Positions 41,432-59,897 of a DNA stretch of 64,000 bases are shown one piece after another (the stretch's first letter is position 1; the number at the start of each line of letters is the position of its first letter). Source of the stretch: Promethearchaeota archaeon (GTDB taxonomy: Archaea > Asgardarchaeota > Lokiarchaeia > Sigyniarchaeales > SOKP01); assembly GCA_048939995.1 (NCBI GenBank), contig JBHLOY010000009.1, positions 21,456 through 85,455 on the forward strand. The letters are read 5' to 3'. The notes below the pieces were generated by a model. It saw nothing but the letters and a program-made list of their open reading frames with translations. It ran no database searches and was not told the DNA's origin. The position numbers were made by a program, and so were the translations under genes.

Positions 41432-42223
41432 TTAAAGAACAAATATTTTTAATAATAAATAAACCCCTATGCCAAAAGCATAAATTGGAATCAAATATTT
41501 CCATATTTTGTTTGGTAATACCCTAACTAAGTAAGGAGCTAAGATTGCGGCAAAAAAACCACCCGTAAAAATTGAGGGCAATATAACCAAATCGACATTA
41601 ACTCCAGCAAAACTAATACCAAAAAATACTATTATTCCTGTTATCGATACTAAACCTTCTGCAAAAGAAACAATTGCTGTGGCACTTTTTTCGTAGATAC
41701 CTGAAAAAATTTGTCCTAAAGTCACTACTGGACCATATCCTCCTCCACCGATCCCTTTATTGAAGCCAGCAAGTGCTGAAAAAGCGAATAACATTTTAGG
41801 CTTGTATTTATATGCTTTAATATTCTTCAATTTTAATCTTAATAAACCAAGCATTCCCATAAAAACTACTAGCACTGCCACATAGATTTTAATCACATCT
41901 TCAGGAAATACAATCGCATAGTAGGAAAGAAAAACTGAGGTGAAAGTTGCTACACAACCAAAAAGCGCAATGTAAAGAGTAACCCTAGTAGTATCATTTA
42001 ATGGTCGAAATGAAAATTGAACATTCTTGAACTCATGATCAAATACAGCATCCATTATACCTGTAATAGCTTCAGAAATTAAAAGTGCTGGAACGACCTG
42101 AAGTGAATTATATCCCATAGATAACAATAATGGAGACAATCCTGTTCCAAAACCCATCCCAGCAGCTGAATCCAATGTTTCAAATATAAACGCTAGGATA
42201 ATTATTATTAAGATTAGCTCCAT
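41432..42223 (-). CDS. TSUP (TauE/SafE, DUF81) family anion permease
   Basis: Seven to eight TM helices, an N-terminal 'DSAAGMGFGTGLSPLLL' and an internal repeat with a 'GIGGGGYGPV' Gly-rich motif. Confidence 0.7.
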   Translation of the reverse strand: MELILIIIILAFIFETLDSAAGMGFGTGLSPLLLSMGYNSLQVVPALLISEAITGIMDAVFDHEFKNVQFSFRPLNDTTRVTLYIALFGCVATFTSVFLSYYAIVFPEDVIKIYVAVLVVFMGMLGLLRLKLKNIKAYKYKPKMLFAFSALAGFNKGIGGGGYGPVVTLGQIFSGIYEKSATAIVSFAEGLVSITGIIVFFGISFAGVNVDLVILPSIFTGGFFAAILAPYLVRVLPNKIWKYLIPIYAFGIGVYLLLKIFVL

Positions 42224-43307: not shown

Positions 43308-44291
43308 ATGATTCAGAAAAAAATTACCTCGTTCCCAGAAATAGTAAATATATCCTCAAAATTCAATATGAAGGAAAAAATCATCTTACATCGGGGTTTA
43401 TCTTATGATTTTTTGAGGAAGCTTCCTAGCAAGTTAATTAGATTGATAATTACGTCCCCACCGTACAATTTAGGCAAAGATTACGAAATTGAGAAGGAGT
43501 TCGAAGAGTATTTGTTAGAACAAGAATTAGTTATTAAGGAATTAGTTAGAGTATTAGCAAATAATGGTAGTATTTGTTGGGAAGTAGGGAATTATATAGA
43601 AGAAGGAGAAGTTTATCCATTGGATATATATTTCTACAATCTTTTTAAAAAGTATTCATTAAAATTGAGGAATAGAATAATCTGGCATTTTGGACACGGT
43701 CTGCATTGTAAGAATAGGTTTTCTGGAAGGTACGAAACAATTTTATGGTTTACAAAATCTAACGATTATATTTTTAATTTAGATGAAGTAAGAGTACCAC
43801 ATAAGTATCCTGGCAAAAAAGCATATAAAGGACCTAATAAAGGAAAACTTTCTGGGAACCCTCTAGGAAAAAATCCTTCTGATGTATGGAAATTGTTATC
43901 TAAAGATTGGAAGAATTCATTTTGGGAATTTCCAAATGTTAAATCAAATCATCCCGAAAAAACAATTCATCCATGTCAATTTCCAATCGAATTGGTTGAA
44001 AGATGCGTATTAGCATTAACTAATGAAAATGATTATATATTGGATCCATATTGTGGTGTAGGTTCAAGTCTTATTGCAGGAATAAAAAATAATAGAAAAG
44101 TAATAGGGATTGATAAGGAATTGAAATATATAAATATCGCTAAAGAGAGGATAAATGCTTATTTTGAAGGAATTCTAAAAATTCGTCCACTAGGAAAAAA
44201 GATACACCAGCCTAGTGGTAGGGAGAAAGTTTCTCAAATACCTAAAGAGTGGCAAAATTCAAAGGAGAATTTAGATGGACCACCATCATAA
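43308..44291 (+). CDS. Beta-class DNA methyltransferase, SPPY type (probable N4-cytosine), orphan
   Basis: Motif IV 'IITSPPYNLG' precedes motif I 'LDPYCGVGSS'. No endonuclease candidate nearby. Confidence 0.8.
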   Translation: MIQKKITSFPEIVNISSKFNMKEKIILHRGLSYDFLRKLPSKLIRLIITSPPYNLGKDYEIEKEFEEYLLEQELVIKELVRVLANNGSICWEVGNYIEEGEVYPLDIYFYNLFKKYSLKLRNRIIWHFGHGLHCKNRFSGRYETILWFTKSNDYIFNLDEVRVPHKYPGKKAYKGPNKGKLSGNPLGKNPSDVWKLLSKDWKNSFWEFPNVKSNHPEKTIHPCQFPIELVERCVLALTNENDYILDPYCGVGSSLIAGIKNNRKVIGIDKELKYINIAKERINAYFEGILKIRPLGKKIHQPSGREKVSQIPKEWQNSKENLDGPPS

Positions 44292-44940
44292 TAAACATGA
44301 ATGGACAGAGGAACGATCAAAACGATTTATAAGGTTAGTGAAAGAAAAAGTATATAAAAGTCGTTATATTCCATTTGCCAGAAAAATTGTTTATTTTATG
44401 GAAAAATATAAAATTGACTTAAATTCCACGATAGTAGATATTGGATGCGGTCCTGGATATCTTCTAATTGAAATCCGAAAAATATTACCTGATATAAAAA
44501 TAATAGGTGTAGATGCATCAGATCTTATGATAAATACTGCAATTGAAAAAGCTAAAGAATTAAATATTAAAAATTTTGAATTTAAGAAAGCTTATGCTGA
44601 AAATATTCCAATTCAAAATAGTCTTATTGATCTTTCCACATGTTACAATAGTCTTCATGATTTTAAGGATTGGAAACTTGCTATTAAGGAGATTTTTCGA
44701 ATTTTAAAACCAAATGGCATTTTTATTCTCCTTGATAGAAGTGGAGCTTATCCTAAATGGAAATTCTTTTCAGTGATATTTAGAATTGGTTTAAGGAATG
44801 CAATACGATATTTTAAGACAAGACATTCATGGTTAGATCCAAAGATTATTGAAAAGCTTATGATAGATGTTGGATTTCAAGTATTATTTTTGGAGAAGAA
44901 AGAGCATTACATTATTGTTGGTAAAAAAAGTAACAAATAA
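44275..44940 (+). CDS. Class I SAM-dependent methyltransferase
   Basis: Motif I 'VDIGCGPGYL' and 'ILKPNGIFILLD'. Overlaps the preceding DNA MTase gene by 17 nt. Confidence 0.8.
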   Translation: MDHHHNKHEWTEERSKRFIRLVKEKVYKSRYIPFARKIVYFMEKYKIDLNSTIVDIGCGPGYLLIEIRKILPDIKIIGVDASDLMINTAIEKAKELNIKNFEFKKAYAENIPIQNSLIDLSTCYNSLHDFKDWKLAIKEIFRILKPNGIFILLDRSGAYPKWKFFSVIFRIGLRNAIRYFKTRHSWLDPKIIEKLMIDVGFQVLFLEKKEHYIIVGKKSNK

Positions 44941-44971
44941 TTTTTTATAATTCTAAAAATTGCACTTATTT

Positions 44972-46075
44972 ATGAATGAAACTGAATCAGATGTTTATCG
45001 TAATCTTCAAAAGCATCTTGATAAAATGCCAGTAGGTTTTCCCGCAACAGATTCTGGTGTAGAGATTCGAATTTTAAAGCATTTATTTACTCCAGAACAA
45101 GCAAAATTAGTATTATATTTAGATTTTCAACCAAAACCCTTAAATAAAATATTTAGAAAAGTAAAGAAAACAGCCCTTACGTTAATAGAACTTGAAAATA
45201 AATTGGATGAGATGTATAAGAAGGGGATTATTAACTTTGGTGAAGTCAATGGGGAAAAATTCTATGCTACTGCAGCTTTAGCAATAGGTATGTATGAATA
45301 TCAATTGAATTCCCTCACAGAAGACTTTGTGAAGGACATCTATCAATATTTTGAAGAAGCTTTTATAAACGAATATAATAGTAGCGGAATCCCTCAACTA
45401 CGTACAATTCCCATTGAGCAAAGCATCGCTCATGAGCAAACAATCTCAACCTATGATGATCTTAGATCAGTTATAGAAAATATTGGAGAACCCATAGGAG
45501 TAGCTGAATGCATTTGCAGGAAAGCTAAGGATCTTATCGAGGATCCATGTAAGAAAACCGATTTAAGAGAAATTTGCTTTAGCTTTAGAACTGCTGCAAA
45601 ATACTATATGAGCCGTGGTTTTGCAAAAGAAATTTCAAAAGAAGAAGCTTTGAATCTTTTAGAAAAAGCTGAAGAGGATGGATTAGTATTACAACCCGGA
45701 AATTCAATGAGACCAATGTGCATTTGTTGTTGTTGTGGGTGTTGTTGTGAGTTGCTTGTTAGTCAAAATAGACTTGCTGAACCAGCACAATTTTTTGCAT
45801 CCAACTACTATGCCAAAGTTGATGAGGAGTTATGTATAGGATGCGCTACATGCGAAGAAAGGTGTAATATTGGAGCTGTTCATATTGAGGATGCTATAGC
45901 TCGTGTAGATATAAAACGATGTATTGGTTGTGGAGTTTGTGTACCAACATGTAATTCTGAAGCAATTAAACTCTATATGAAAGATAAAGAAATTATTCCA
46001 CCAGAAAATACTGCTTCTACCTATAAAGCAATTATGGATAAAAAAGCTGAGTTAGCAAGATTAGAAAAAACTTAA
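44972..46075 (+). CDS. 4Fe-4S dicluster protein with an unusual poly-Cys segment
   Basis: C-terminal 'CIGCATCEERC' and 'CIGCGVCVPTC', an upstream 'ECICRKAKD' and 'PMCICCCCGCCCE', and an N-terminal 'MPVGFPATDSGVEIRILKHLFTPEQAKL'. The ORF track begins at the TTG at 44960. Confidence 0.7.
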   Translation: MNETESDVYRNLQKHLDKMPVGFPATDSGVEIRILKHLFTPEQAKLVLYLDFQPKPLNKIFRKVKKTALTLIELENKLDEMYKKGIINFGEVNGEKFYATAALAIGMYEYQLNSLTEDFVKDIYQYFEEAFINEYNSSGIPQLRTIPIEQSIAHEQTISTYDDLRSVIENIGEPIGVAECICRKAKDLIEDPCKKTDLREICFSFRTAAKYYMSRGFAKEISKEEALNLLEKAEEDGLVLQPGNSMRPMCICCCCGCCCELLVSQNRLAEPAQFFASNYYAKVDEELCIGCATCEERCNIGAVHIEDAIARVDIKRCIGCGVCVPTCNSEAIKLYMKDKEIIPPENTASTYKAIMDKKAELARLEKT

Positions 46076-46171: not shown

Positions 46172-46762
46172 ATGAGTGATGAAGTTAGTGAAGAATCAGT
46201 TTGGACAGGAATGATAAGGAAATATTGGTATGCAATAATACTCTATGGTATTGCTATTATCGGTGCTATTATAGGAGTTATCTTAGTATTTCTGACATTT
46301 ATTGCAGCCCCAGATATAGCTGGAGGAGGAACTTGGACTTTTGCACAATTTTCTGTAGGCGCTTTGATACTATGGTTTATATTTTTATTCTTGTGGGAAT
46401 TACTATTGGTAGGGCTCCCTGTTATTGGGTATCTTGCCATAGTAACAGTGATCTTTTGGTTTGTAGTTTTATCTGAAGAAGATAAAGCTATAATTAAAAG
46501 TAGGGAGAAAAAAGAGAGAAAAGTTAAAAAGACTAGTGGTGGTAGCGGAGCTGCTGGATTTCTATTCTTTATCGCATTCATTTTAGTTCTTGTAATTGAT
46601 GGCAATTTGTTTGCTGCATTTGATACATTACCTTATACATATTTTCTATTTGCTTATCTTGTAGGTGTTATGTGGACCGTTATCGTTCTGGGTATTCCTG
46701 TATTGATTATCGTTATAATTTATTATGGATATAAAGAATCAAAAAAACAAAAATCAGAATAA
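46172..46762 (+). CDS. Membrane protein, unknown function
   Basis: Six hydrophobic helices with a central basic loop (KSREKKERKVKKTSGGSG). Confidence 0.55.
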   Translation: MSDEVSEESVWTGMIRKYWYAIILYGIAIIGAIIGVILVFLTFIAAPDIAGGGTWTFAQFSVGALILWFIFLFLWELLLVGLPVIGYLAIVTVIFWFVVLSEEDKAIIKSREKKERKVKKTSGGSGAAGFLFFIAFILVLVIDGNLFAAFDTLPYTYFLFAYLVGVMWTVIVLGIPVLIIVIIYYGYKESKKQKSE

Positions 46763-46792: not shown

Positions 46793-49123
46793 TTATATTT
46801 TAATTGAAGGATCAAACACCTTTTTCTCAATTAGGTTCAAAATTACTTCTGCTTCTTTAGCTTGAAATCCTCCTTTTTGTGAGATTAGGTTAGATACAAA
46901 AAAATAATTCACTCCTTTTTGTTTCATAATAATCTTTGCTAATTCAATAAACTCTTTCTCATTAGAGGTTAATTTTATGGTTGATGCATCATTAATCTGA
47001 AGGGGGTAAATCAAGCTGACAGGTAGATGGTGTTCAATAAGATCTGTTATACCAGTGAATTTACTTACTTCTCCATCAAATCGTTCTAAATCTTTCCCAT
47101 AATTTTGGTCAATATCATAAGATAACTGCTTTATTGACTCAAGGAAGTCTTCAGAAGGGCTCTCCTTCATTATAAGAGTTATTCTAAAATTCTTGAATTC
47201 AGACATCAATATTTTAGAATCCTGATATTCGAGCTTAACGGTTTGGGATTGTTGATTTGAACCTGTGAGATCCAGGCCAAAACTTCTAATTGCTTCTAAG
47301 AATCCAGAAATTAAAGAGGCATCTATACTCTTACTTGCAAAAATTTTATCATAAATATTAATTCCAGAATTTTTTTCGATAATTAATAAATAATCCAAAT
47401 TCAAAATATCCATATATTTGTTAAAAATACTTTGTCGATATGTTGCTCTTTCTTTTTTAACTTTCTTGACTACTTTAAATGATGTGAATGCACTTACCGC
47501 GACTATAGAACCAACAATTGCAGTTATTATAAGGATGAGAGGCAAAATATCTATATTGACCAAAAATGTTTCCGATTTAATTCCAGCGGCGGTTATTGTA
47601 TTCCAAAAAACATAAGCAACGTATGCTCCTTCATTTGGATTAGCTGATAAAGTGTAATTATATACAGTTTCAGTTAGTGTTACAGGGACTCGCTTTCTAT
47701 CTATCTCATATCCTAATGAATCTCTTAAAATGAATGTATAGTTGCCCTCTAAAAGAGGAGCAATTACAGAATACTTTAATTCTTGTGATTGCTCGAAATT
47801 TTTTTTAGGTGTATTTAGAGTTAATGCAACGTTTGGAGAATTAGCTCTTATTTCCCAATCAGCACCATCAATAATGGTATTATTGGGAATAATTATTACT
47901 TTTCCAATAGGATCAATATTAACTTGGGAAGAGATGTTTATCCCATCTCGAAATACTGCTGGGTTAAACCAATTGGAGGGATAATCAAACTTCACTGAAT
48001 GATTTATATATAATCTTGAAATAATAGGAGTAAGTGTCCAGTTATTATCTTGACTTTCTTGCATCGTTACATATCCACTGGAGAAAAATAAATTTTTAAG
48101 ATTTAGGTGGTAAGTTAAATTAAACAATAATTCTACTGAGTTGTTATTCCAGATTTCAATATTTAGGGCATCATCGCCAGGACTATAATCTACTCCTTTG
48201 ATTGTGAGATTACCCGTTCCGATTTCGGGTCCATTTGTTATTTTATAAATACCACCATTTAATTCTGCAGTCATATTTATACTCTCGGGGAAATAGGTTT
48301 TGCTTGTTCTTTGAAGAACTTTATATAAGAATGGTGAGCCTTGTTTTCCTCTTGTCCAGTGCCAAACTGTAAGCTCACGTACATAAAAAGAGATATGAAG
48401 GTTTGGATGGTTTGGATTTGCATCATTGTAAAACCAATATATTGTTGAACCTTCAATCGCTATAAACTGAGTGACATTTAAGAGTAAATAATATTGTCCT
48501 ATTGAAAGATCAACAGGATTTTGAAACTTTTGGTAATGCCACCCCAAACTATTCGTCATATTTAATTTTGTTGAGCCATAAATAATATTATTTGGTGAAT
48601 CTGGTAATAATCCCCCGGAATTATATCCATTTATTTGTACATTCGTTATATCTACGATTGCTGGAGAGGTAGCAACCCCATAAATATAAACTCCAAAAAT
48701 TTTAGTTGGCTCAGTAATATTTATTTGAACGCCCATTCCACGCACATCTTTCCCGAGAGTATGAAATCCAACAGTAGTATTATCTTCTATAGTAATGATC
48801 TCACGTTCAAGTTTTATATCAGTAAAATTAAGATTAATTTGAGTAACATTCCAAGTTGATGAGGGTAATGGGATTTTTATGGAACTATTACTCTCTTGTG
48901 TATCAATATTATCTGCTAACTCAATCATATGAAGATGTGTTGGAGTTGTTAGTGTAATTCCATTATATTGAGCTAAGGATATTTTAGAATTGAATAAAAA
49001 GCTAAAAAGAAACATTGAAATCATTCCATAAATAAATAAAACTCTAAATTTTTTACTTTTCACCATAATTTCCCCATACCTCATTATAGAAATAATTTTA
49101 ACTGCATTTCTAATCTTAATCAA
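46793..49123 (-). CDS. Receptor-like single-pass membrane protein, paralog 2
   Basis: Colinear with 19985..22258 over its full length, including the tail motifs 'DILNLDYLLI', 'LISGFLEAIRSFG' and 'IYPLQI'. The probable start is the ATG at 49066 (MVKSKKFRVLFIYGM... signal peptide ending ...SLAQ). Confidence 0.8.
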   Translation of the reverse strand: MIKIRNAVKIISIMRYGEIMVKSKKFRVLFIYGMISMFLFSFLFNSKISLAQYNGITLTTPTHLHMIELADNIDTQESNSSIKIPLPSSTWNVTQINLNFTDIKLEREIITIEDNTTVGFHTLGKDVRGMGVQINITEPTKIFGVYIYGVATSPAIVDITNVQINGYNSGGLLPDSPNNIIYGSTKLNMTNSLGWHYQKFQNPVDLSIGQYYLLLNVTQFIAIEGSTIYWFYNDANPNHPNLHISFYVRELTVWHWTRGKQGSPFLYKVLQRTSKTYFPESINMTAELNGGIYKITNGPEIGTGNLTIKGVDYSPGDDALNIEIWNNNSVELLFNLTYHLNLKNLFFSSGYVTMQESQDNNWTLTPIISRLYINHSVKFDYPSNWFNPAVFRDGINISSQVNIDPIGKVIIIPNNTIIDGADWEIRANSPNVALTLNTPKKNFEQSQELKYSVIAPLLEGNYTFILRDSLGYEIDRKRVPVTLTETVYNYTLSANPNEGAYVAYVFWNTITAAGIKSETFLVNIDILPLILIITAIVGSIVAVSAFTSFKVVKKVKKERATYRQSIFNKYMDILNLDYLLIIEKNSGINIYDKIFASKSIDASLISGFLEAIRSFGLDLTGSNQQSQTVKLEYQDSKILMSEFKNFRITLIMKESPSEDFLESIKQLSYDIDQNYGKDLERFDGEVSKFTGITDLIEHHLPVSLIYPLQINDASTIKLTSNEKEFIELAKIIMKQKGVNYFFVSNLISQKGGFQAKEAEVILNLIEKKVFDPSIKI

Positions 49124-49253
49124 AATATTTAAATTTAAGAGTATAATTTTCCCCAGAATTATTATATTAAAACATTTTTAGGGGATTTTGTCTATTGACT
49201 ATAATTAATCTTTTTATAATTAAACGGCAAAGATATTATTATTTAATATACAG

Positions 49254-50555
49254 GTGAATAAAGTGGTAAGGATAACGACTAAAGGTATGAGCGATTGGTT
49301 TGGACTTTTTGGTTCATCTACTTTTGGAGATGGTCTATGCCATTTTATAGGATGTATGGCTAATATGTGCGTTTTTGATACTAGCGAAGGGCTAGTTATA
49401 TTTGACTTGCCAATGAAACAATTTAGTTATAAAATATTTAAAGCAATCAGAGAAAGAACCAAAAAACCAGTAAAATATTTCATATATTCTCATGGTCATT
49501 TTGATCATGCATTTGCATTCGCACCTTTCATCGAAGAAGTAGGAAAAAAGGGTTGGATAATGCCTGAAGTTATAGCACATGAAAATTGTATTAAAAGATT
49601 CGAAAAATATAGGATGCTTAGTGAATATCACGTGTGGATTAATAAAATGCAATTTGCTTCACTAGGGATATTGAAGCATAAAAATTTAGTTTCTGCTTTA
49701 GAAACTCTTGATCCAACAATCATTTTAAAAGGAAATGATGCAAAATACAATTTTGAATTAGGAAGTATTCAATTTGATCTAAATCATGATAAAGGTGAAA
49801 CAGATGACTCAATCTGGTTATGGGTACCTGAGAAAGAAACGATTTGTGCGGGGGATTTATTCGTATCATCATTTCCTAATATAGGTAATCCTTTTAAGGT
49901 TCAGCGTTATCCTAAAGATTGGGCAATTGCTTTGGATAAAATGCTTGAAAAAGAGGCAAAGTATCTAGTTCCAGGACATGGTCCTCTTATAAAAGGGAAA
50001 GAAAAGGTTAAGGAGGCTCTATTAATAACTTCTGAGGCTTTGCATTTTGTGCATGATGAGGTTGTTAAGCGGCTTAATGCGGGGAAATGGTTTGAGCAAA
50101 TCTACTATGAGATGCTAGAAATATTCCCTAAAAAATTCAAAAACCATCCATTATTGCGGGAGATGTATGGATGTTATCGATTTGCAATTCACGCATCCTA
50201 CAGACTCTATCATGGCTGGTATAACAGTGGTAATCCTACAGAATTATTTCCTTCAAAGGCAACAGATATTGCACAAGAATTTTTAAAGCTCAATAGTGAA
50301 GAATCATACTTGAATCATGCAAAGAAGTTATTTGAGGAAGGTAAACTACAATTAGCATTGCATATTCTCGATGTCGTAATAAATGGAATCAATGAAAAGA
50401 AGGGCAGTATCTATTTAAAGGCTTTACAATTAAAATATGACATTCTAAAAATTAAAGTGGAGGAAGAGTCGTCTTTTATTGCTGCTAATATTCTTGATAA
50501 TGCGAGATATAATATAAAAGATAAGATTAAAACCATACAAAAACAATTAAAATAG
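49254..50555 (+). CDS. MBL-fold alkyl/aryl-sulfatase (SdsA1/BDS1-like) lacking the SCP2 domain
   Basis: 'YSHGHFDHAF', 'GETDDSIWLWVPEKETICAGDLF' and 'PGHGP', then the alkylsulfatase dimerisation-domain pattern 'YHGWYNSGNPTELFPSKATDIAQEFLKL'. No signal peptide. The start is uncertain (GTG at 49254, GTG at 49263 or ATG at 49287). Confidence 0.7.
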   Translation: MNKVVRITTKGMSDWFGLFGSSTFGDGLCHFIGCMANMCVFDTSEGLVIFDLPMKQFSYKIFKAIRERTKKPVKYFIYSHGHFDHAFAFAPFIEEVGKKGWIMPEVIAHENCIKRFEKYRMLSEYHVWINKMQFASLGILKHKNLVSALETLDPTIILKGNDAKYNFELGSIQFDLNHDKGETDDSIWLWVPEKETICAGDLFVSSFPNIGNPFKVQRYPKDWAIALDKMLEKEAKYLVPGHGPLIKGKEKVKEALLITSEALHFVHDEVVKRLNAGKWFEQIYYEMLEIFPKKFKNHPLLREMYGCYRFAIHASYRLYHGWYNSGNPTELFPSKATDIAQEFLKLNSEESYLNHAKKLFEEGKLQLALHILDVVINGINEKKGSIYLKALQLKYDILKIKVEEESSFIAANILDNARYNIKDKIKTIQKQLK

Positions 50556-50563
50556 AATTTTTC

Positions 50564-52813
50564 TTATCGTTGAGGCACAAAAACGCCTTTTTTAATAAGA
50601 TTAAGTACGGTTTGGGCATCCTTTGGTGAACATTCATTTTCAGGTAGCAGATAAAGCGCATAAATATGGTCTAATCCATAATCTTCCATTAATTTCTTCG
50701 CTTTTTCAACCATCTCCCTTTCAGCAGAATTTAATCTTACATTATCAGGCATTTCTATTTTTAACGGATAGATGAACGAAACATTTAGATGTTCTTCAAC
50801 CAATTCTTTGATTCCTTTAAAGTCTTTTACATTTCCATGAAATTCATCAATCATTTTTCCATAATTTTTATACACATCATATGCTAAGGATTCAACAGCA
50901 TAATGGAAATCTACTGAAGGTTCAGCTTTCATGTTTAGGATGATTCTTACATTTACAAATTCTGTCATTAATAAGATAGAATTTTTATATTGTATTTTTA
51001 CTGTTTTGTCTTTATCCTTGGCTACTTCTGAACCAAACGCACGAACGGCTTGTAGAAAACCAGATATTAATGTGGAATCCCCTTTTTGTTCTCCAAATGA
51101 TTGAGAATAAATGTCTATTCCAGATCTAATATCAGTCACTATTAAATAGTTTAGGTTGAGGATATCTACACATTTTTCTAGCAATCTTTGCATCTCATAT
51201 CTACGATTTTTTGATACTCTCTTATAAGCTATAAAGCTTAAGATTGCAGCAATAGGTGCAATTGTAACAACCGTAATAATTATAAAGAAAATACCCATAT
51301 CTGGGGGAGGTGATTTAGGGATAGAAATAATAAACTCTTGAACTATAACACCCGCATCGGTCTGATTGTTCCAGAATACGTATGCAATATAGGTTCCGTC
51401 TGGTGAACTCAATGGAAGTGTATAGGAAAATAGAATAGTATCAGGAGGTATAGTTTTGCTGATATTAAATTCTTCAATATCTGCAGAGTTTATTAAAATA
51501 TACGTATAGGTTCCTTCTAATGTAGGTGTTGCTAGCGAAAATTGAACTTCTTGTCCTAAATAATAATCTGTTTTTGGAGCATTCAATCCAATTGAAAAAC
51601 TAGGAGATTCCGCCATTATCTCCCAATTAGCGTTTTCGATAAGAGTATTATTTGGGATAAATATATAATTTTCATTAATTGTTATATTGAATTCCATATT
51701 TTGCCCATCTCTAAAAACGCTTATATTTTCCCATGTACGGGGAATTTTGAATTTAATGCTATAATTATCTGTATAACGAATAAATGTTCGGGAAAGAATC
51801 CATTCATTACTTTGAGATTCCTGTATACTTACTTCACCCAGAGTGATTAAACTTTCCTCAAAATATAAATGATAGGAAATATTGAAATCTAACGCTTTTG
51901 AAGCGTTATTATTAACAGCAAAAGAAAGAGTAGTAGTTAAAGGACGAAAATCTTGAAATGTTTGAGATAAAACCCCACTTCCCTCTTCTCCACCATTTAA
52001 CACTTGATATTCTTGATTATTTATATTAACGGACATATTGATACTTTCTGGAAAAAGAGGAGCTTTACTTTTCCGAATTATTTTGTAAAGAAATGTTTTA
52101 TTATCTACCCCGTCAGCCCAAATAACGCTATCCTCTAGAGTAGTCGCAGAGTACAATGATGGATCGCTAGGATTTGAATTATAATGCCAGTAATAATATT
52201 GACCATTAAGACTAAAATTAGTTCCATTTAGAACTAAAAAGTAATTTCCACTTGGTAAATTAAGAGGAGATGAAAAATTTTGTATATACCATCCCAAAGT
52301 TGTTGAGATATTGAGAGTCTGAGAAGTAAAAATGGTGCTATTTGGTGTGTTATTTGTATCATTATATCCTCGAATCTGCACTTGAATATTTTGAGTGGTA
52401 CCCGCGCTCTTGTTTCCATAGATAAACACTCCATAAATGGTTTCGGGATGATCTAATCTAATTTGAGTTGCTAAGCCTAAATTATTAAAAATTCCATTTG
52501 TAAAATAAACCCGTTCAAATCCCGTTGGTTGATCTTCTACGATTATTGTCTCCTTTTCAAAAGTAAGGTTCATAAAATCTAATTCAATGTTCGTAATATT
52601 CCATTCAGTAGTTGGTAATTCAATATTAATAGAATTGACAGTTGAATTTGATCCTTGAAGATCAGAATATTGAGACATTTTAAAACTAGTATTTAGATTT
52701 AAAATTAGATCATGCCCTTGAGCCTTAGTACTTCTTAAATTTATATTAAAACTAATGAAGAGAGCAGTAGATACTAAAATGAAAATTAATAGACTTTTTT
52801 TATTCAAACTCAA
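50564..52813 (-). CDS. Receptor-like single-pass membrane protein, paralog 3
   Basis: Colinear with the other three paralogs. Tail motifs 'DILNLNYLIV', 'LISGFLQAVRAFG', 'IYPLKI' and 'LNLIKKGVFVP'. TTG start. Confidence 0.8.
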   Translation of the reverse strand: MSLNKKSLLIFILVSTALFISFNINLRSTKAQGHDLILNLNTSFKMSQYSDLQGSNSTVNSINIELPTTEWNITNIELDFMNLTFEKETIIVEDQPTGFERVYFTNGIFNNLGLATQIRLDHPETIYGVFIYGNKSAGTTQNIQVQIRGYNDTNNTPNSTIFTSQTLNISTTLGWYIQNFSSPLNLPSGNYFLVLNGTNFSLNGQYYYWHYNSNPSDPSLYSATTLEDSVIWADGVDNKTFLYKIIRKSKAPLFPESINMSVNINNQEYQVLNGGEEGSGVLSQTFQDFRPLTTTLSFAVNNNASKALDFNISYHLYFEESLITLGEVSIQESQSNEWILSRTFIRYTDNYSIKFKIPRTWENISVFRDGQNMEFNITINENYIFIPNNTLIENANWEIMAESPSFSIGLNAPKTDYYLGQEVQFSLATPTLEGTYTYILINSADIEEFNISKTIPPDTILFSYTLPLSSPDGTYIAYVFWNNQTDAGVIVQEFIISIPKSPPPDMGIFFIIITVVTIAPIAAILSFIAYKRVSKNRRYEMQRLLEKCVDILNLNYLIVTDIRSGIDIYSQSFGEQKGDSTLISGFLQAVRAFGSEVAKDKDKTVKIQYKNSILLMTEFVNVRIILNMKAEPSVDFHYAVESLAYDVYKNYGKMIDEFHGNVKDFKGIKELVEEHLNVSFIYPLKIEMPDNVRLNSAEREMVEKAKKLMEDYGLDHIYALYLLPENECSPKDAQTVLNLIKKGVFVPQR

Positions 52814-52962
52814 CCCATTTTATTATAATTTATTATTTTAATCCTCTTCTACTATAAAAAAGTTTTTGTCTAATTTTTTATAACTGTTTGAAATTAATAA
52901 AAAATTAATTTCTTTTATAATTATATTTTTTTAAAAAAATTAAAGAGAAAATAAAAATAGAG

Positions 52963-54273
52963 TTAGGGTTTAAGGATAGCCCCTTTGCTTAGAGCAGTTA
53001 TGGTTTTATCTTTTGGTTCGGGGACGAAATTTAATACAATAAAAACACCGATAAATGCAACTAGGCTAAGAAGCATACCAGTACCGAGTGCCTGAAGAGA
53101 AACAAATGGGTTGCTAAAAGGATCTGCACTAAAAGGGTTAAGTGCATCCGAAATAACTCCCACTATAAATCCTCCCAAGCCAGCTCCACGTGCTATAGAA
53201 AATATTATTGAGTTTGCAGAAGCTCTAACTTCAGTATCATATAATTCAGAAGACCAAACACCAAAGATACCATGAAGACCAAAACCGAGTGTAATAAAAA
53301 CAGAGGATAAGAGGATCAGATTATCACTAAACAACATTTTAGTAAATATAGCAAATAATACCCCTCCAATTATTCCAATGATGTTATCGATTAGAAAAGC
53401 TTTTTTTCTACCCAGATAATCACTTAAAAACCCAAAGAAAAATAAACCGAATGCAGCTATTACCATAAGAACTAACATAAAAAGTCTTGAGATACTTTCA
53501 TAATTAGTTACTCCCGCGTTGGCAAATAAGTACTGAAAGAAAGTTGGTGCAAAGTCTACTAAGGAATGATAGGCAATTTCAGCGAACCAGAACAAAAAAA
53601 TAAGTAATACAGTTAACTTCCGCCATTTCCTACTGAAAATTTCTTTTAAACGTATTTTTTGTTTAATCTGTTTCTCCTTGCGGAGTTGTTCATATTCAGT
53701 CCAAATAGCAGATTCTGGTAAGGTGAACCAAAAGAGTATAATAAAAGGTATAGGAAAGAGGGCAGTAAGGAAACAGAACTGCCACGGACGGATCAGCAAT
53801 GTTGTTATTATTGCACCGATATATCCTAATACAAATGTAGAGTGAACTAAACCACCTGCAGCACCTCTTCTTTTAGGAGAAAAATGTTCGGATATTAACG
53901 AGAAAGAAATTCCCCAACTGACTCCCAAACCAGAAATCATTCTCATAATTGCGAATAGTACAAACATATTAGAAGGTACTAGCGAAGTCAAAGAGGAAAA
54001 AATCGCATCCCATGCTATAGAGATGATTAATGCATTTTTCCTCCCAAAACGATCTCCTAATTCACCGAAAAGAATGGCACCGGGAACAGTAAATACGAAT
54101 TGAAATGAAAAAACAAGACCTATCTGCCAATCACCGACTCCAAAGAATGTTTTTAGTTCGGGAGCTAGTAAAGTTACCATAACTAATGAATATCCATCAT
54201 GCATCCATGCAATAAATGCAGCCAACAGAATTATTAAAGTTGTAAATTTTGAATATTTTTTAAGTTCAGTCAA
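52963..54273 (-). CDS. MFS transporter
   Basis: MFS motif A 'GELGDRFGRKNALIISI', 12 TM helices and a central cytoplasmic loop. Confidence 0.85.
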   Translation of the reverse strand: MTELKKYSKFTTLIILLAAFIAWMHDGYSLVMVTLLAPELKTFFGVGDWQIGLVFSFQFVFTVPGAILFGELGDRFGRKNALIISIAWDAIFSSLTSLVPSNMFVLFAIMRMISGLGVSWGISFSLISEHFSPKRRGAAGGLVHSTFVLGYIGAIITTLLIRPWQFCFLTALFPIPFIILFWFTLPESAIWTEYEQLRKEKQIKQKIRLKEIFSRKWRKLTVLLIFLFWFAEIAYHSLVDFAPTFFQYLFANAGVTNYESISRLFMLVLMVIAAFGLFFFGFLSDYLGRKKAFLIDNIIGIIGGVLFAIFTKMLFSDNLILLSSVFITLGFGLHGIFGVWSSELYDTEVRASANSIIFSIARGAGLGGFIVGVISDALNPFSADPFSNPFVSLQALGTGMLLSLVAFIGVFIVLNFVPEPKDKTITALSKGAILKP

Positions 54274-54359
54274 ATTTTTTCACTTTTTAATAGAAATTAG
54301 TGAATAGGTAAATATTGTCTTAAGAAATATTTAAGATTATAAGAAAGTGCAAGAAGGTT

Positions 54360-55283
54360 TTATTGAGATATAAGGTAAAAAACGAAAGCGATACATCCTA
54401 AACTTGCCATAACAATACCCATAGCCCTACCCATTTTTTTTGCTGATAAACTTTGAATATAGGTTGAGGTAAGAATGCCAGTAATAGCAGAGCCAATTGC
54501 TAAGAAAAGGGAAATTTCAAAATTTATGTAAAATGTTCCTCTAAATGAAACTCCAAGAATTTGATATAAGGTAAAGGTAATTAGGCTAACAATGATACTT
54601 AATATAAGAGCAGTTCCAATACTCTTTTTAATTGGATAACCATAAAGAATTATTAAAGCTAAAACAATTATCAATCCTGAGTTTGCTCCAAATAAGCCTG
54701 AATTTATTCCGAGGAGAAGACCAAAAACTATAGCGACTATAAAATATAATCTAGATCCTGAAGGGATTACTTCTTCTATTTCAATTGTTTTTGCATTTGT
54801 TTTATTTTTTTGAGAGAGAATATCAATTTGTTCTTCAATTTCAACCTTTAAAAATCTCTTATATATGTTTCTAACCATCTTCTTTAACCGTTCGGTTGTC
54901 GTATATCCACTCTTAATAAAAATTAATCCCAAAAAAATAATGAATAGAGGTATGAACCAACCATAAATATTACCTATTGGAGTTAGCATCAATATAAATA
55001 CCCCGATAAAAGTAAAAACAAGAGCAATTAATATTAATATGAAAATATTTTTTTGAAATTTATATTCCCTTTTTCTTATATACCCAACACTTACTGCAAA
55101 GGCAGTTATTAAATCGTTTAATAAGTTAATTGCAATTGTTAAAAACACATCTCCAGTTAACATAAGGACTATTGGCATGACAAGCCCTTGTCCAGTTTGG
55201 CCAATAAAACACATACCAATACCAACAAGAGCCCCAATTATCAATAAGATAAATATCTGATATATTTCTAAAGCCATCGTCAA
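54360..55283 (-). CDS. TSUP (TauE/SafE-like) family permease
   Basis: Two 4-TM halves split by a charged loop, with Gly-rich helix starts (GALVGIGMCFIGQTGQGLVMP; LLGINSGLFGANSG). Confidence 0.6.
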   Translation of the reverse strand: MTMALEIYQIFILLIIGALVGIGMCFIGQTGQGLVMPIVLMLTGDVFLTIAINLLNDLITAFAVSVGYIRKREYKFQKNIFILILIALVFTFIGVFILMLTPIGNIYGWFIPLFIIFLGLIFIKSGYTTTERLKKMVRNIYKRFLKVEIEEQIDILSQKNKTNAKTIEIEEVIPSGSRLYFIVAIVFGLLLGINSGLFGANSGLIIVLALIILYGYPIKKSIGTALILSIIVSLITFTLYQILGVSFRGTFYINFEISLFLAIGSAITGILTSTYIQSLSAKKMGRAMGIVMASLGCIAFVFYLISQ

Positions 55284-55347
55284 TTATTCCAGATTAATTA
55301 ATATAAATTATTATACTATTACTGAATTGAAAATTTCTTTTCTTTAT

Positions 55348-56856
55348 TCAATTTGCTGCTATTCTTTTAGGGAATTTTGTCTGAGCCTTTAAATTCTGTT
55401 GAAGAAGTGTGTTGATCAATTTAAATCTTTCATCTCTAAAAGCGCGGTTTTCCCATAGATTATTAAGCTCATAAGGATCATTTTTTCGGTCATATATATC
55501 CCCATAATCAAGGCCCTCATATACAGTCAATTTGTAATGTTCAGTTACTAAATGCCTTAACCGAGCTTCAAGTGGACCTACTTCTTCATCATTTTCAATA
55601 AAAATACATGTTCTCACTCTTTCTCTGGGATTCATTAAAATGGGTGAAATATCAAAACCTTGCATGTCAGATGGATGATATCGACTATGTATACCCAATA
55701 AATTTAGAATAGTTTTTGGATAATCAATAGAACTTACCAAAGAGTTCGAAATTCCTGATTTTAGATATCCAGGTACTTTCCAGATCAATGGAAGTTGCAA
55801 TACACCGTTGAATGGGCATGGTCCTTTAAAGAGTAGGCCGTGTTCGCCCATTAAGTCACCATGATCACTCATGAATACTATAATGGTATTCTTTGAATAG
55901 CCTAGTTTATCCAACGCTGCAACTATTTGCCCTATACTATAATCAACATAGGATATTGCCGCATAAGTTAAAGCCGTCATCTTTTGAACTTCTTCTTTAC
56001 TTGACTCCCGTAAAAAGGCTTTTTTAAATGGTGGATTCTTTAAATGAGTGCCTAAAAATTTATGTTTATACAGATTTTGGATATCTGTAAAATTTGGAGG
56101 AAGTTCGATGTCATCAGGATCATACATATTTTGGAATCGTTCAGGAGGATATATAGGATAATGAGGATCTGGAAAGGAACAATGCAGATAAAAAGGTTTA
56201 TTCCCATATTCTCCTCTCGCATGTCTCTCTAAAAATGCAATTGTTCTTTCTTTCACATATGTAGTGTTATATAATTCTTCTGGTATCTTCTCACAGAAAA
56301 GCCTGAAAAGATTGTCGTAATTTTTTACTTTTTTTCTCATTTTTTCTGCTTCATGCGGAGATCTCTCTTCTAACCACTCTAAATAATGACCAGTACATAA
56401 AGATCCATTTCCCGAAATTAGTTCTACCTCTTTATAACCATAATAATCTAAAGGAAATGTGTTTGAAGTTGTTTTATAGTCTGCCCACTCATCTATGCTT
56501 TCAACTGACCTAGATTTATGCTTAAATGCCCCAAACCAAAATTGATGGTGAATTTTTCCGATAGCTGCTGTATGCCACCCTCTCTTTTTCAGTGTTTGAA
56601 TAATAGTGGGAATCTCTGGTCTTAAATTAATTCCATTACTCCTAACACCATGTACGTTAGGGTAAACCCCCGTAATCAGTGTAGCTCGATTAGGCATACA
56701 AATTGGATTAGTACAAAAGTGATTAGTAAACTGAACTCCTTCCTTAGCTAATCTATCCAGATTTGGGGTTTTTATAATTGGGTTTCCTGCATACCCTAAA
56801 TGATCAGCTCTTTGAGCATCTGTTATAATGAATAACACATTCATTTTGTCACTCAT
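55348..56856 (-). CDS. Type I (formylglycine-dependent) sulfatase, Cys-type, cytoplasmic
   Basis: 'LFIITDAQRADHLG' and the sulfatase signature 'CMPNRATLITG' (CxPxR...TG). No signal peptide. Confidence 0.85.
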   Translation of the reverse strand: MSDKMNVLFIITDAQRADHLGYAGNPIIKTPNLDRLAKEGVQFTNHFCTNPICMPNRATLITGVYPNVHGVRSNGINLRPEIPTIIQTLKKRGWHTAAIGKIHHQFWFGAFKHKSRSVESIDEWADYKTTSNTFPLDYYGYKEVELISGNGSLCTGHYLEWLEERSPHEAEKMRKKVKNYDNLFRLFCEKIPEELYNTTYVKERTIAFLERHARGEYGNKPFYLHCSFPDPHYPIYPPERFQNMYDPDDIELPPNFTDIQNLYKHKFLGTHLKNPPFKKAFLRESSKEEVQKMTALTYAAISYVDYSIGQIVAALDKLGYSKNTIIVFMSDHGDLMGEHGLLFKGPCPFNGVLQLPLIWKVPGYLKSGISNSLVSSIDYPKTILNLLGIHSRYHPSDMQGFDISPILMNPRERVRTCIFIENDEEVGPLEARLRHLVTEHYKLTVYEGLDYGDIYDRKNDPYELNNLWENRAFRDERFKLINTLLQQNLKAQTKFPKRIAAN

Positions 56857-56933
56857 TATTATTACTTCGATTAATTAAAATAAATAACTTACTTAAAGTA
56901 AAAAAAAAAGATGGAAGAAAAATATCAAACTTT

Positions 56934-59174
56934 CTAAATGACTGGCTGAAATATTTTTTTCTCTATTAAGTTAAAAATAGCCTCTATATCCTTCGAATCA
57001 TACTGCTTAGTTTCCATAATATGGGTCGTGTAGAAATAATTTTGTTTATTTCTTTTCATAACTTCTAAAGCACGACCAATAATTGTTCGTTCTACTTGGT
57101 CTACTTTATGTTTTCCAGTTTTAACGACTTTTAATGGATATAAAAAGGAAATATTCAAATGTTTCTTAAGCAAGTCTTCAATACCCTTAAATGGGTCAAT
57201 ATTTCCCTTAAATTTTTCAAGGTATCGGCCATAGTATAATTCAATATCAAAAGCTAACTGATTTATTGAATCGAGGAATTTTTCTGAGGGTAATTGGTTC
57301 ATAATTAGAACTATTCGAAAGTCTCTGAATTCAGACATTATCACTTTGGAATTTTTGAATTCAAGTTTGATTGTTTGCGTTTTTTCATCTGTATTTGTCA
57401 ATTCTATTCCAAAAGAATGAATTGCTGATAAAAATCCTGTTATAAGAGTAGGATCAATTTTTTGGGATGTAAATACTTGTTCATATACATTTAATGATGA
57501 TTTTTTTTCAGCAATCATAATATATTTTAGGTTTAAAATGTCCATACACTTATTAATAATTTCCTCTTTCTTTGTCATGACTTTCCTCTTATGCCGTTTA
57601 GCAACAATAATAATAGAGATTGTAACTCCGCTAAAAACTGCAACTCCTAAAATAATAAGAAATAAACTCAACGGATCTATTGTAAATGGAACCGTAATAG
57701 TAAAAGTAGCAGTTTCAACTCCAGCATTTAATCCATTAAAAAAATATATATATGCATAATAACTGCCATCTAGAGGGTAAGCAGGGATATTATAAGCAAG
57801 AATGTTAGCATCTGAAGGAAGTGAAATTGTTTGACGGGAGACTTCGTAATAATCAGGACGATATAGTACAAAAGTATAGTTACCTGGCGTTACAGGAGTA
57901 TCAATTGAAAATCTCAATTCTTGACCCGGTCCATACTCAGTTAGGCGTATATCTAGATCAAAATTAAATCTAGGAGAGTTGGCTGATATTAACCATTCTG
58001 CTCCATCAATTATAACTCCATTATAAATAAACAATGTATTTTGGGTTGAATTGTCAAATATTAAAGAGCTGATATTGACATTATTTCTATAAACGGTCAA
58101 ATTATTCCAATTAGAGGGATAAACAAATTTAATAAAATAATTCTCATATACTTCATTAAAAGAAGGCGTTATATTCCATAGATTATCCCTATTGGTTTCA
58201 ATTGAAACAGATCCAGTACAAATAAACCCACTTTTTATATTTAAATAATAATTAAGACTGAAATTTAATTGTATATTGAGATGATTTTTAATTTCAATAT
58301 TCAAACTGTCTGTTTCTGTCGCCCAATTTAGTCCAGTTAAAGCTAATTCTCCAGAATTAGGAATACTAGAGTTTAAAATAGGATAATCTAAACCATTAAT
58401 TACCGCTGTCATATTTAATTCTTCGGGATTATAGCTTTTATTTACTTTCTGAGCTAATTTGTATAGATATGGTTCACTTTGCGTTCCTGGTAGCCAATTA
58501 GAAGTATATTCTGCGGCGTAAAGTGTTGGATCCTTGGGATCAACTCCATTGTAAGCCCAATAATATTCTGTATCTCCACTTACAATTCCGAACATAACTA
58601 AATAATAGTTTCCACTTTCTAGAGTTACTCGAGAATTAAAGTTTTGATAATACCAACCGGGTACTGAAGAAACATTGATATCTGTAAATGCATAAATTGT
58701 ATCATTAGGTTTATGATCAACACTATCAAAACCTCTAATTTGAACTTGAATGACTTGGGTTGTGGTTTCAGGCTTGTATGCATAAATATCAACCCCGAAT
58801 ATGGTAGTAGTCTCATTTAGTTTTATTTGAACTCCGAGTCCATGTCTCCTTTTAGAAGGGGTATCATAATAAATCCGACCATATGTCCCTTGAGCTTGAT
58901 CCTCAATTATTTTTAGCTCGCGTTCCAACTTTATGTTTGAAAAATTAAGATGCAAATTAGTTATATTCCAATTATTTGAAGGTAGGGAAATTTCGACTGT
59001 GCTTACATTTTCATTGCTGCCACTTTTTTCAGCATATTCTTCAAATAAGAAGTTAGAGGCCGCTATTAAGTGTTCACCACTTACTTGAGCTTCAACAAAT
59101 TCGAATTGAAAAACGAATCCTAAAAATAACATTACAAAAAGGGAATTAATGAGTAGATAATTCTTTACTTTCAT
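56934..59174 (-). CDS. Receptor-like single-pass membrane protein, paralog 4
   Basis: Colinear with the other three paralogs. Tail motifs 'DILNLKYIMI', 'LITGFLSAIHSFG' and 'LYPLKV'. Signal peptide ending ...VEAQ. Confidence 0.8.
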   Translation of the reverse strand: MKVKNYLLINSLFVMLFLGFVFQFEFVEAQVSGEHLIAASNFLFEEYAEKSGSNENVSTVEISLPSNNWNITNLHLNFSNIKLERELKIIEDQAQGTYGRIYYDTPSKRRHGLGVQIKLNETTTIFGVDIYAYKPETTTQVIQVQIRGFDSVDHKPNDTIYAFTDINVSSVPGWYYQNFNSRVTLESGNYYLVMFGIVSGDTEYYWAYNGVDPKDPTLYAAEYTSNWLPGTQSEPYLYKLAQKVNKSYNPEELNMTAVINGLDYPILNSSIPNSGELALTGLNWATETDSLNIEIKNHLNIQLNFSLNYYLNIKSGFICTGSVSIETNRDNLWNITPSFNEVYENYFIKFVYPSNWNNLTVYRNNVNISSLIFDNSTQNTLFIYNGVIIDGAEWLISANSPRFNFDLDIRLTEYGPGQELRFSIDTPVTPGNYTFVLYRPDYYEVSRQTISLPSDANILAYNIPAYPLDGSYYAYIYFFNGLNAGVETATFTITVPFTIDPLSLFLIILGVAVFSGVTISIIIVAKRHKRKVMTKKEEIINKCMDILNLKYIMIAEKKSSLNVYEQVFTSQKIDPTLITGFLSAIHSFGIELTNTDEKTQTIKLEFKNSKVIMSEFRDFRIVLIMNQLPSEKFLDSINQLAFDIELYYGRYLEKFKGNIDPFKGIEDLLKKHLNISFLYPLKVVKTGKHKVDQVERTIIGRALEVMKRNKQNYFYTTHIMETKQYDSKDIEAIFNLIEKKIFQPVI

Positions 59175-59321
59175 AAACTAAATACCAAAAACCTTAGTTT
59201 TAATACCCGACTCCTTTTAAAATATATAATAGCACACTTATATAAACTATTTGATAAGGTTTTAATATGAATTAGAATGTCATAAATAACATTTTAAACA
59301 AAAAAAAGAAGAAGTCGTAGT

Positions 59322-59897
59322 TTATTTTTTTAATTTTTTAATTACATAGGCAATATTTTTAGCTAGATTTTTAAAAGTTTCCATCCCTTCTTCGTCATTT
59401 AAGACTTCTCCTGGTTTTTTTCCAATAGCCATATTCCAATAAGTACTTCCTACCACTATCATTTCTTTAATGAGGAAAAAGAAGTTTATGCTAGAGAAAA
59501 CATGATTAGCACCAGCTCGTCTGACGGCTACAACAGCTGCACCCACTTTATTCTTTAGATTTCTACCGGTAGCATAACCCGCACGTTCTATTAAAGCTTT
59601 AGTGCTGGTTGTCATATTAGAAAAATAGGTTGGAGATCCAATTATTATTCCATCAGCTTCAAGCATTTTTTGGATATAATCATTCATTTTATCTCCAGGT
59701 AAGACACATTTTTGATCATTATTATCAATACATTTTAAACATGCAGTACATCCTTGTAACTTTTCCATTCCGATCCACACATAATCACATTCTATACCTT
59801 CTTCTTCGAGAGTTTCCATAAGAATACTCAAACAATGATAGGTATTTCCTTCTTTTCGAGGACTTCCATTAAAAAGTACAACCTTCATGATACTCAA
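59322..59897 (-). CDS. Iron-sulfur flavoprotein (Isf-like flavodoxin-fold FMN reductase)
   Basis: 'MKVVLFNGSPRKEGNT' and the compact Cys motif 'CTACLKCIDNNDQKC' (CxxCxxCx7C). Confidence 0.75.
   Translation of the reverse strand: MSIMKVVLFNGSPRKEGNTYHCLSILMETLEEEGIECDYVWIGMEKLQGCTACLKCIDNNDQKCVLPGDKMNDYIQKMLEADGIIIGSPTYFSNMTTSTKALIERAGYATGRNLKNKVGAAVVAVRRAGANHVFSSINFFFLIKEMIVVGSTYWNMAIGKKPGEVLNDEEGMETFKNLAKNIAYVIKKLKK

Follow-up and report, generated by a model that had tools for sequence, protein, structure and literature searches.

In the Ragulator (LAMTOR)-Rag-SLC38A9 system, Roadblock domains form paired platforms for small GTPases that work beside a nutrient transporter. Asgard archaea, the closest known relatives of eukaryotes, possess many small GTPases and many Roadblock/longin proteins, the inputs to which are unknown. 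In a different setting, the sulfated-glycan polysaccharide utilisation loci (PULs) of Bacteroidota, tandem beta-sandwich surface proteins are co-encoded with sulfatases and transporters, and their binding parts diverge quickly. The protein family described here is encoded in a 64,000-nucleotide stretch of a Promethearchaeota archaeon (contig JBHLOY010000009.1, positions 21,456 to 85,455; G+C ~30%; hereafter the window), and it resembles each of these systems in part. Four paralogs of the family, called receptor-like in a first-pass annotation of the window, are present, and three of them (paralogs 2, 3 and 4) lie among genes for a sulfatase, an alkylsulfatase-like enzyme, a TauE/SafE (TSUP) permease, a major facilitator superfamily (MFS) transporter and an FMN_red flavoprotein (Table 1). 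The reading favoured here, tentatively and with slightly less than even confidence, is that the proteins serve an organosulfate-utilisation cluster as the subunits that bind or sense a ligand outside the cell.

Conservation of the neighbourhood was assessed on loci fetched from other genomes and metagenomes (L-numbers below), in which the family genes were sorted into clades and homologs of the window neighbours were sought by tblastn. A homolog of the sulfatase or of the alkylsulfatase-like protein lies within 10 kb in 33 of the 54 loci of paralog-2/3/4 type (31 of 50 genomes), and 42 of the 54 contain some cassette gene; most of the 12 that have none ended upstream at a contig end. At the 13 loci with paralog-1-type genes only, neither a sulfatase or alkylsulfatase homolog (0/13) nor an FMN_red gene (0/13) was found, and Fisher's exact test of 33/54 vs 0/13 gives p = 6e-5. 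Thus the association with sulfatase genes, from which the first-pass annotation had speculated on a link to sulfated substrates, extends to other genomes, and the refuting check which that annotation set (no association of other family members with sulfatase or transport genes) did not refute the link. The recurrent order is FMN_red, sulfatase, (sulfatase), (TauE), (MFS), (alkylsulfatase-like), then one or two family genes, of clades C4 and C6, where the genes in parentheses come and go between linked loci and all but the alkylsulfatase-like gene are co-directional. In the lineage of the window the order is expanded to FMN_red, paralog 4, sulfatase, TauE, MFS, paralog 3, the alkylsulfatase-like gene on the opposite strand, and paralog 2, followed by a conserved flank that encodes a 196-aa membrane protein, a Cys-rich 4Fe-4S protein and a methyltransferase. 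The clade of paralog 4 (C5) stands upstream of the sulfatase in other genomes too, that of paralog 2 (C6) is the conserved downstream member of tandem pairs, and such pairs, with at least two complete family genes, occur in 28 loci. The most constant neighbour of the family is FMN_red, present in 26 of the 54 non-paralog-1 loci, often directly upstream, and found beside the family even where there is no sulfatase (e.g. L036, L055, L058, L060 and L061).

It is very unlikely that this synteny is coincidental, the family and the cassette being functionally unrelated and adjacent through the kinship of the sampled genomes. Many of the loci do come from related metagenome-assembled genomes (MAGs) and from few studies, and sulfatase orthologs occur without the family. 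Yet adjacency is kept at loci whose family proteins share as little as 38-48% identity with those of the window (sulfatase 56-84%) and across changes of gene content and order, the flanking genes vary from locus to locus, and the paralog-1-type genes of these same genomes have no such neighbours.

The architecture of the proteins is that of a surface protein. Each paralog has an N-terminal hydrophobic signal, an ectodomain of ~470 aa, a single transmembrane helix at about aa 506-530 and a cytoplasmic tail of 220 aa, and a K/R-rich stretch follows the helix directly (positive-inside). N-x-S/T sequons number 13-22 per ectodomain, where shuffles predict 8-9, vs 0-2 per tail; the background in other window proteins is 0.52 per 100 aa. 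The signal, the single membrane segment, the K/R stretch and the skew of sequons together are the hallmark of a surface protein of type I that carries N-glycans. The ectodomain of paralog 3, modelled by AlphaFold2 on a 59-sequence alignment with a mean predicted local distance difference test (pLDDT) of 91, is predicted to be all-beta, with an N-terminal sandwich of ~210 residues and two immunoglobulin (Ig)-like domains of ~110 residues ahead of the membrane helix. Foldseek searches of PDB and BFVD with this model returned only generic tandem Ig, FN3 and macroglobulin folds, phage tail and baseplate proteins and galactose oxidase, all at a query-normalised template-modelling (TM) score of 0.28 or less, and no specific lectin or carbohydrate-binding module (CBM) could be named from Pfam, PDB sequence or Foldseek searches. 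Pfam has no family for the whole proteins, the isolated tails or the ectodomain, even at E <= 10. A PF18422 (TNFR_16_TM) match in one homolog spans the membrane helix alone and was rejected as compositional; PDB sequence-profile matches obtained with 4, 17 and 59 sequences (Ssr1698 at E ~0.05, PCNA, nanobodies) were marginal and were treated as noise. Eukaryotic type I receptors are similarly built, with a signal peptide, an N-glycosylated Ig/FN3-like ectodomain, one membrane segment and a folded cytoplasmic output domain, but their output domain is a kinase, death domain, TIR domain or similar rather than a Roadblock/longin fold, and no homology to them was detected. The designation receptor-like therefore agrees with the signal, the single membrane segment, the sequon enrichment of the ectodomain and the predicted folding of the tail as a Roadblock/longin-type platform.

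The tail was modelled separately (219 aa, pLDDT 84). In the model, elements in the order alpha-beta-beta-alpha-beta-beta-beta-alpha (H2-22, E24-31, E37-42, H50-64, E74-79, E82-89, E92-98, H104-126) make up a sandwich of the Roadblock fold, which is followed by a small helical/beta subdomain. The longin order is beta-beta-alpha-beta-beta-beta-alpha-alpha, without an N-terminal helix; in the tail model a helix lies ahead of strand 1, as in Roadblock, and appears to continue straight from the transmembrane segment. Foldseek matches in PDB are uniformly Roadblock/longin at probability 1.0 (LAMTOR2/3, MglB, the Thorarchaeota Roadblock protein 7f8m, AP sigma, zeta-COP, Mon1-Ccz1). The best E-values go to the longin proteins AP sigma and zeta-COP, yet with a root-mean-square deviation (rmsd) of ~10-11 A, and the best low-rmsd matches are LAMTOR2/3 (target-normalised TM score 0.62-0.66, rmsd 3.1-3.4 A).

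Two described systems are closest to this tail. Ragulator likewise holds Roadblock folds, LAMTOR2/3 among them, at a membrane and beside a nutrient transporter, and here the tail-bearing genes adjoin an MFS transporter and catabolic enzymes. Unlike the present family, Ragulator is anchored by the lipidated LAMTOR1 in place of a transmembrane helix, has no ectodomain and shows no sequence similarity to the tail, and no Rag-like GTPase gene lies beside the sulfatase-linked copies. MglB-MglA and the soluble Asgard Roadblock proteins (7f8m; PMC10933270) share the fold class, and paralog-1-type genes adjoin or lie near Ras-family GTPase genes. Those Roadblock proteins are small, soluble, single-domain and recognised by Pfam Robl_LC7, whereas the present module bears a further subdomain at its C-terminus and continues from a transmembrane helix and a predicted glycosylated ectodomain of ~470 aa. 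In the text of PMC10933270, the principal structural study of Roadblock proteins from Asgard archaea, 'transmembrane' occurs 0 times, and full-text literature searches found no account of transmembrane Roadblock-tailed proteins or of an Asgard sulfatase cluster. The parts (Ig-like ectodomains, the Roadblock fold, S1 sulfatases) are known; their combination and genomic setting appear to be undescribed.

From outside to inside, then, the proteins comprise a variable distal head of beta-sandwich domains, a more conserved Ig-like stalk next to the membrane, a membrane helix and a conserved tail of predicted Roadblock/longin fold with its subdomain. As read from gene content, the cluster would import small sulfate esters through the MFS transporter, the S1 sulfatase and the alkylsulfatase-like enzyme would hydrolyse them in the cytoplasm, and the TauE/TSUP permease would export the released anion; the FMN_red flavoprotein heads the cluster. 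The head may bind the sulfated substrate or a polymeric source of it, tandem paralogs may dimerise by way of their Roadblock domains, since pairing is the rule among Roadblock proteins, and the tail may relay occupancy to a cytoplasmic partner, most obviously a small GTPase of Ras/Rag-like type. The conserved tandem pairs of family genes are indirect evidence for such dimers. Coupling to a GTPase is suggested because Roadblock/longin platforms regulate GTPases, as established for MglB and Ragulator and reviewed for Asgard proteins in PMC10933270, and because paralog 1 is syntenic with Ras-family genes. A bolder version, which is unlikely on present evidence, holds that the proteins are true transmembrane receptors whose Roadblock-like tail is a membrane-fixed docking and regulatory platform for Asgard small GTPases, so that an external nutrient, sulfated organics, is coupled to GTPase signalling; recombination would pass heads from one lineage to another and so adjust their specificity, and the system would be an archaeal counterpart, possibly a forerunner, of eukaryotic membrane-anchored platforms of the Ragulator-Rag type.

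The synteny with GTPase genes concerns paralog 1, around which there is no sulfatase cassette. A Ras-family gene ends 5 nt from paralog 1, and its orthologs (71-100% identity) adjoin or lie near paralog-1-type genes in L005, L014, L016, L020 and L026. A small-GTPase gene lies within 5 kb of 10 of 17 genes of the paralog-1-like clade vs 0 of 85 in the other clades, although many paralog-1-type loci are syntenic orthologs, so that the count reflects conserved synteny and not many independent events. A second Ras-family gene is found in the window at 9497..10054.

The enzymes of the cassette are consistent with sulfate-ester catabolism inside the cell. The sulfatase carries the formylglycine motif C-M-P-N-R (CMPNRATLITG) in its N-terminal region and belongs to the S1 family; its relatives in PDB are characterised S1 carbohydrate and choline sulfatases (E ~1e-39). 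No sulfatase maturase gene, radical-SAM or other, was seen among the window proteins. The metallo-beta-lactamase-fold protein has PSdsA, Pisa1, YjcS and SdsA1 as distant PDB relatives, and at 433 aa, against 630-670 aa for these, and with no match to their C-terminal SCP2-type domain, it is named only alkylsulfatase-like. Neither sulfatase-type enzyme has a signal peptide, and both are therefore predicted to be cytoplasmic. The FMN_red flavoprotein carries a Cys cluster, GCTACLKC...C. The comparison with PULs is functional only, since the PUL concept applies to diderm Bacteroidota: there SusC/SusD pairs occupy the outer membrane and the sulfatases are periplasmic, whereas the window cluster is archaeal, with predicted cytoplasmic enzymes, an MFS transporter and a Roadblock-like cytoplasmic domain, and general Pfam scans gave no Sus-family match among the window proteins scanned.

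The family is restricted to Asgard archaea. A search of 5.8 billion proteins returned 77 close relatives, all named ones from Asgard MAGs (labelled Heimdall-, Hod-, Loki-, Thor- or Promethearchaeota) and annotated as 'hypothetical protein'; across this and the tail-profile search, database entries read either so or 'Ig-like domain-containing protein'. Paralog 3 is 100% identical to an NCBI MAG protein, ACFFFB_15510, a 'hypothetical protein'. A scan of 185,579 species genomes, one per species, gave 116 matches, from which 70 loci in 56 assemblies were kept, all named ones again Asgard MAGs and three labelled only 'uncultured archaeon'. A search of viral contigs returned no relative. The tail travels further than the family: a tail-only profile matched 1367 proteins at E <= 1e-3 (612 at E <= 1e-10) among 1.84 billion cluster representatives, the named ones again Asgard. 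Beyond the ~750-aa family the module is found after the membrane helix of proteins whose ectodomains, again rich in sequons, are much larger (900-1650 aa), and in a few matches a bare N-terminal membrane helix precedes it; at least P0217 among these few is probably a fragment, given that a protein of 1333 aa falls in the same 90% cluster. The module is not confined to membrane proteins, as the soluble 1021-aa protein P0210 (L115 8001..11066) joins it to an FG-GAP/BBS2-BBS7/ITFG2-like beta-propeller and to DDRGK- and PCI-type domains.

Ectodomain and tail evolve at unequal rates. The first-pass annotation held that ectodomains vary more than tails, which is marginal among the four window paralogs themselves (mean identity 37.5% vs 42.3%) but clear across orthologs: family-wide, over 5995 pairs, the ectodomain averages 39.2% identity vs 48.6% for the tail, which is the more similar part in 94% of pairs. 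Because synonymous sites are saturated between window paralogs, Nei-Gojobori estimates of nonsynonymous divergence (dN) and of its ratio to synonymous divergence (dN/dS) were made for each region against orthologs in the closest genome. The ectodomain gave dN 0.16-0.40 and dN/dS 0.18-0.28, and the tail dN 0.05-0.10 and dN/dS 0.03-0.12; the ratio of ectodomain to tail dN is 1.6-4.6, and the dN/dS values are rough since dS (0.75-1.7) is near saturation.

These rates bear on the possibility, somewhat unlikely, that the proteins are passive surface capture proteins which do not signal but concentrate or tether sulfated polymers for the cassette, as SusE/F-type proteins do, the tail serving for oligomerisation or anchoring to a scaffold. 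Family genes that are co-directional with enzymes and transporters at short gaps are what would be expected of pathway components of this kind, a chain of beta-sandwiches resembles the ectodomain of many glycan-binding surface proteins, and GTPase genes are not near the sulfatase-linked copies. A passive anchor fits less well with a 220-aa tail that is better conserved than any other part of the protein and is common to ~1,400 cluster representatives with differing ectodomains; such a tail argues for a specific cytoplasmic interaction, and the CBM that a capture protein might carry was not detected.

The heads have been swapped repeatedly. Residues 1 to ~380 of paralog 3 are 65-85% identical to the L004 and L007 copies and 35-60% to those of L006 and L003, whereas from residue 400 to the end identity is 70-92% to L006 and L003 and 55-70% to L004 and L007; L006 comes from the genome closest to the window in other genes (82-88% identity). 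The breakpoint in sliding-window identity, at about aa 380-400, coincides with the boundary at which the second domain of the ectodomain gives way to the third. The paralog-3 position is occupied by no fewer than three unrelated kinds of head (window/L004/L007/L009; L006/L003; L008/L011), and they are discordant with the relationships of stalk and tail. Between L008 and L009 the paralog-3-type genes share 93% identity in stalk and tail and 42% in the head, and among 102 pairs with stalk and tail at least 75% identical, 29 have heads below 55%. Unlike paralog 3, paralog 2 has a head that tracks its tail. Repeated swapping points to selection on the binding target of the head.

The proteins might also be general glycoproteins of the cell-surface coat, with heads driven to diversify by viruses or by cell-cell recognition, the cassette servicing the sulfated glycans of these glycoproteins themselves or being linked through inherited gene order alone. 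The strong sequon enrichment would suit a coat protein, head replacement between relatives as close as L008 and L009 is a pattern often shown by recognition proteins and by receptors for viruses, and phage baseplate and tail proteins are among the top structural matches, though with generic scores. This explanation is nonetheless distinctly unlikely: sulfatases without signal peptides cannot act on surface glycans in place, the association with the cassette is clade-specific and survives rearrangement of order and content, and the search of viral contigs found no homolog.

Several observations weigh against the proteins being ligand-binding or sensing subunits of the cluster. From the side of the sulfatase orthologs, a family gene is found in no more than 5 of the 38 loci taken from metagenomes (about 5 of 14 when those with too short a flank are set aside), and several family-less sulfatase loci have a Fer4 gene upstream and, in some, TauE downstream. 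Thus the family often joins the cassette, the cassette also exists without the family, and the association is not reciprocal; moreover, many loci are related by descent, so that the counts are not independent events. Both sulfatases being predicted cytoplasmic, the pathway has no mechanistic need of a receptor at the surface. Pfam, Foldseek and PDB searches found no ligand-binding site or known carbohydrate-binding module in the ectodomain. Within 5 kb of the sulfatase-linked family genes there is not one GTPase gene, which means that the partner proposed for the tail is not encoded nearby. The tail has no match to Pfam Robl_LC7 (PF03259) at E <= 10, and hhalign of the tail alignment with a canonical Asgard Robl_LC7 protein gives a probability of 0.4%; the tail is therefore assigned to the fold and not to the Pfam family, its kinship with Roadblock proteins being one of predicted fold alone. 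Finally, the neighbourhoods of other tail-bearing proteins are mixed and there is no general rule yet. Genes for an alpha-L-fucosidase and a GH3 enzyme lie ~1.2-5 kb upstream of the 1468-aa P0200 (L114 8001..12407), which joins the tail module to a much larger ectodomain, with an MFS gene ~6 kb upstream and small unannotated genes between, and in L118 an FMN_red gene lies ~320 nt upstream of a 1291-aa tail-bearing protein; L116, L117 and the locus of the soluble form, L115, have no catabolic or transport genes beside the tail-bearing gene. L114 also has a Gtr1/RagA-Arf-type GTPase gene 8 kb downstream of P0200.

Should the family prove to sense ligands for the organosulfate cluster, it would be a candidate input device joining the cell exterior to the Asgard GTPase machinery, and its conserved placement in a sulfate-ester catabolic cluster provides a concrete candidate ligand class. 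The role of eukaryote-like signalling parts in archaea, a long-standing question, thereby becomes approachable by experiment. Independently of the receptors, the cluster suggests the use of organosulfates by these sediment archaea.

Within the window, open reading frames (ORFs) match exactly the minus-strand coordinates that the first-pass annotation had assigned to paralogs 2, 3 and 4 (Table 1). The start of paralog 2 is probably the ATG at 49066 (757 aa) rather than the TTG at 49123, as judged from the alignment. The co-directional minus-strand run described there, from paralog 4 through sulfatase, TauE and MFS to paralog 3, is correct to the nucleotide in its gaps (77, 64, 86 and 149 nt) and too short in extent, since the FMN_red gene, 147 nt upstream of paralog 4, belongs to it as well. 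With gaps of 64-149 nt throughout (50564..59897) and a gene order kept in other genomes, the run may be co-transcribed, and internal promoters could fit within the 147-149-nt gaps. The alkylsulfatase-like gene is, as had been noted, divergent from paralog 2 (head-to-head, 130 nt apart) and convergent with paralog 3 (tail-to-tail, 8 nt apart). Pfam agrees with the earlier calls of sulfatase, TSUP permease, MFS transporter and alkylsulfatase, the last qualified as above.

The paralogs had also been taken for an old expansion, and this view stands. End-to-end protein identity among the four is 37-41%, the longest exact nucleotide match in any pair is 11-17 nt, and blastn aligns nothing beyond patches of 66-80% identity; those of greater length (~300-640 nt, 66-67%) fall in the tail-coding part. 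With such protein identity and no long nucleotide match the paralogs are old duplicates, and the closest relatives of each sit separately in other Asgard MAGs.

Table 1. Positions in the window of the family genes, of the parts of paralog 3 and of neighbouring genes
Feature	Position	Strand	Remarks
Ras-family small GTPase	19455..19979	+	174 aa; Pfam Ras E = 1.7e-45; convergent with paralog 1
Paralog 1	19985..22258	-	757 aa; ORF and alignment
Methyltransferase	44275..44940	+	Pfam; conserved flank of paralog 2
Cys-rich 4Fe-4S protein	44960..46075	+	371 aa; CICCCCGCCC and 4Fe-4S dicluster domain; conserved flank
Multi-transmembrane protein	46172..46762	+	196 aa; no Pfam match; convergent with paralog 2, 30-nt gap
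Paralog 2	46793..49123	-	776-aa ORF; alignment; clade C6
Alkylsulfatase-like metallo-beta-lactamase-fold protein	49254..50555	+	433 aa; Pfam Lactamase_B and Alkyl_sulf_dimr only
Paralog 3	50564..52813	-	749 aa; copy used for structure models
Paralog 3, cytoplasmic tail	50567..51223	-	aa 531-749; predicted Roadblock/longin-fold domain and small C-terminal alpha/beta subdomain
Paralog 3, transmembrane helix	51236..51307	-	~aa 503-526; hydropathy peak; helix 480-503 of ectodomain model
Paralog 3, distal head	51689..52708	-	~aa 36-375; large N-terminal beta-sandwich and one Ig-like domain
MFS transporter	52963..54273	-	Pfam MFS_1 5.6e-35, Sugar_tr 1.8e-26
TauE/SafE (TSUP) anion permease	54360..55283	-	PF01925 E = 3.8e-23, profile positions 1-234/237
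S1 formylglycine-type sulfatase	55348..56856	-	502 aa; Pfam Sulfatase 1.2e-46, SGSH_C 1e-15
Paralog 4	56934..59174	-	746 aa; second gene of co-directional run; clade C5
FMN_red-family flavoprotein	59322..59897	-	191 aa; Pfam FMN_red 2.1e-28; first gene of run

Beyond paralog 2, the flank of methyltransferase, 4Fe-4S protein and 196-aa membrane protein recurs in identical order in L003, L004, L006, L008 and L009. A Fer4 homolog adjoins the sulfatase orthologs, or lies upstream within ~2 kb of them, in the family-less loci L093, L096-L098 and L113, and the Cys-rich 4Fe-4S protein could have a part in the work of the sulfatase, perhaps by helping it to mature or by supplying electrons. In the 5-7 kb range from the cluster are a TrmB-family sugar-type transcription regulator (39276..40163, +) and a second TauE/TSUP permease (41432..42223, -). 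Two N6_N4_Mtase DNA methyltransferase genes (36929..37744 and 43308..44291, both +) and three DUF6125 genes (25686..26219, 38101..38640 and 38601..39125, of which the second and third overlap head to tail) are also present. Staygreen is familiar chiefly from plants, where it is the Mg-dechelatase that acts in the breakdown of chlorophyll; a full-length Staygreen protein is encoded in this Asgard archaeon at 35084..35551 (+; PF12638 E = 7e-51).

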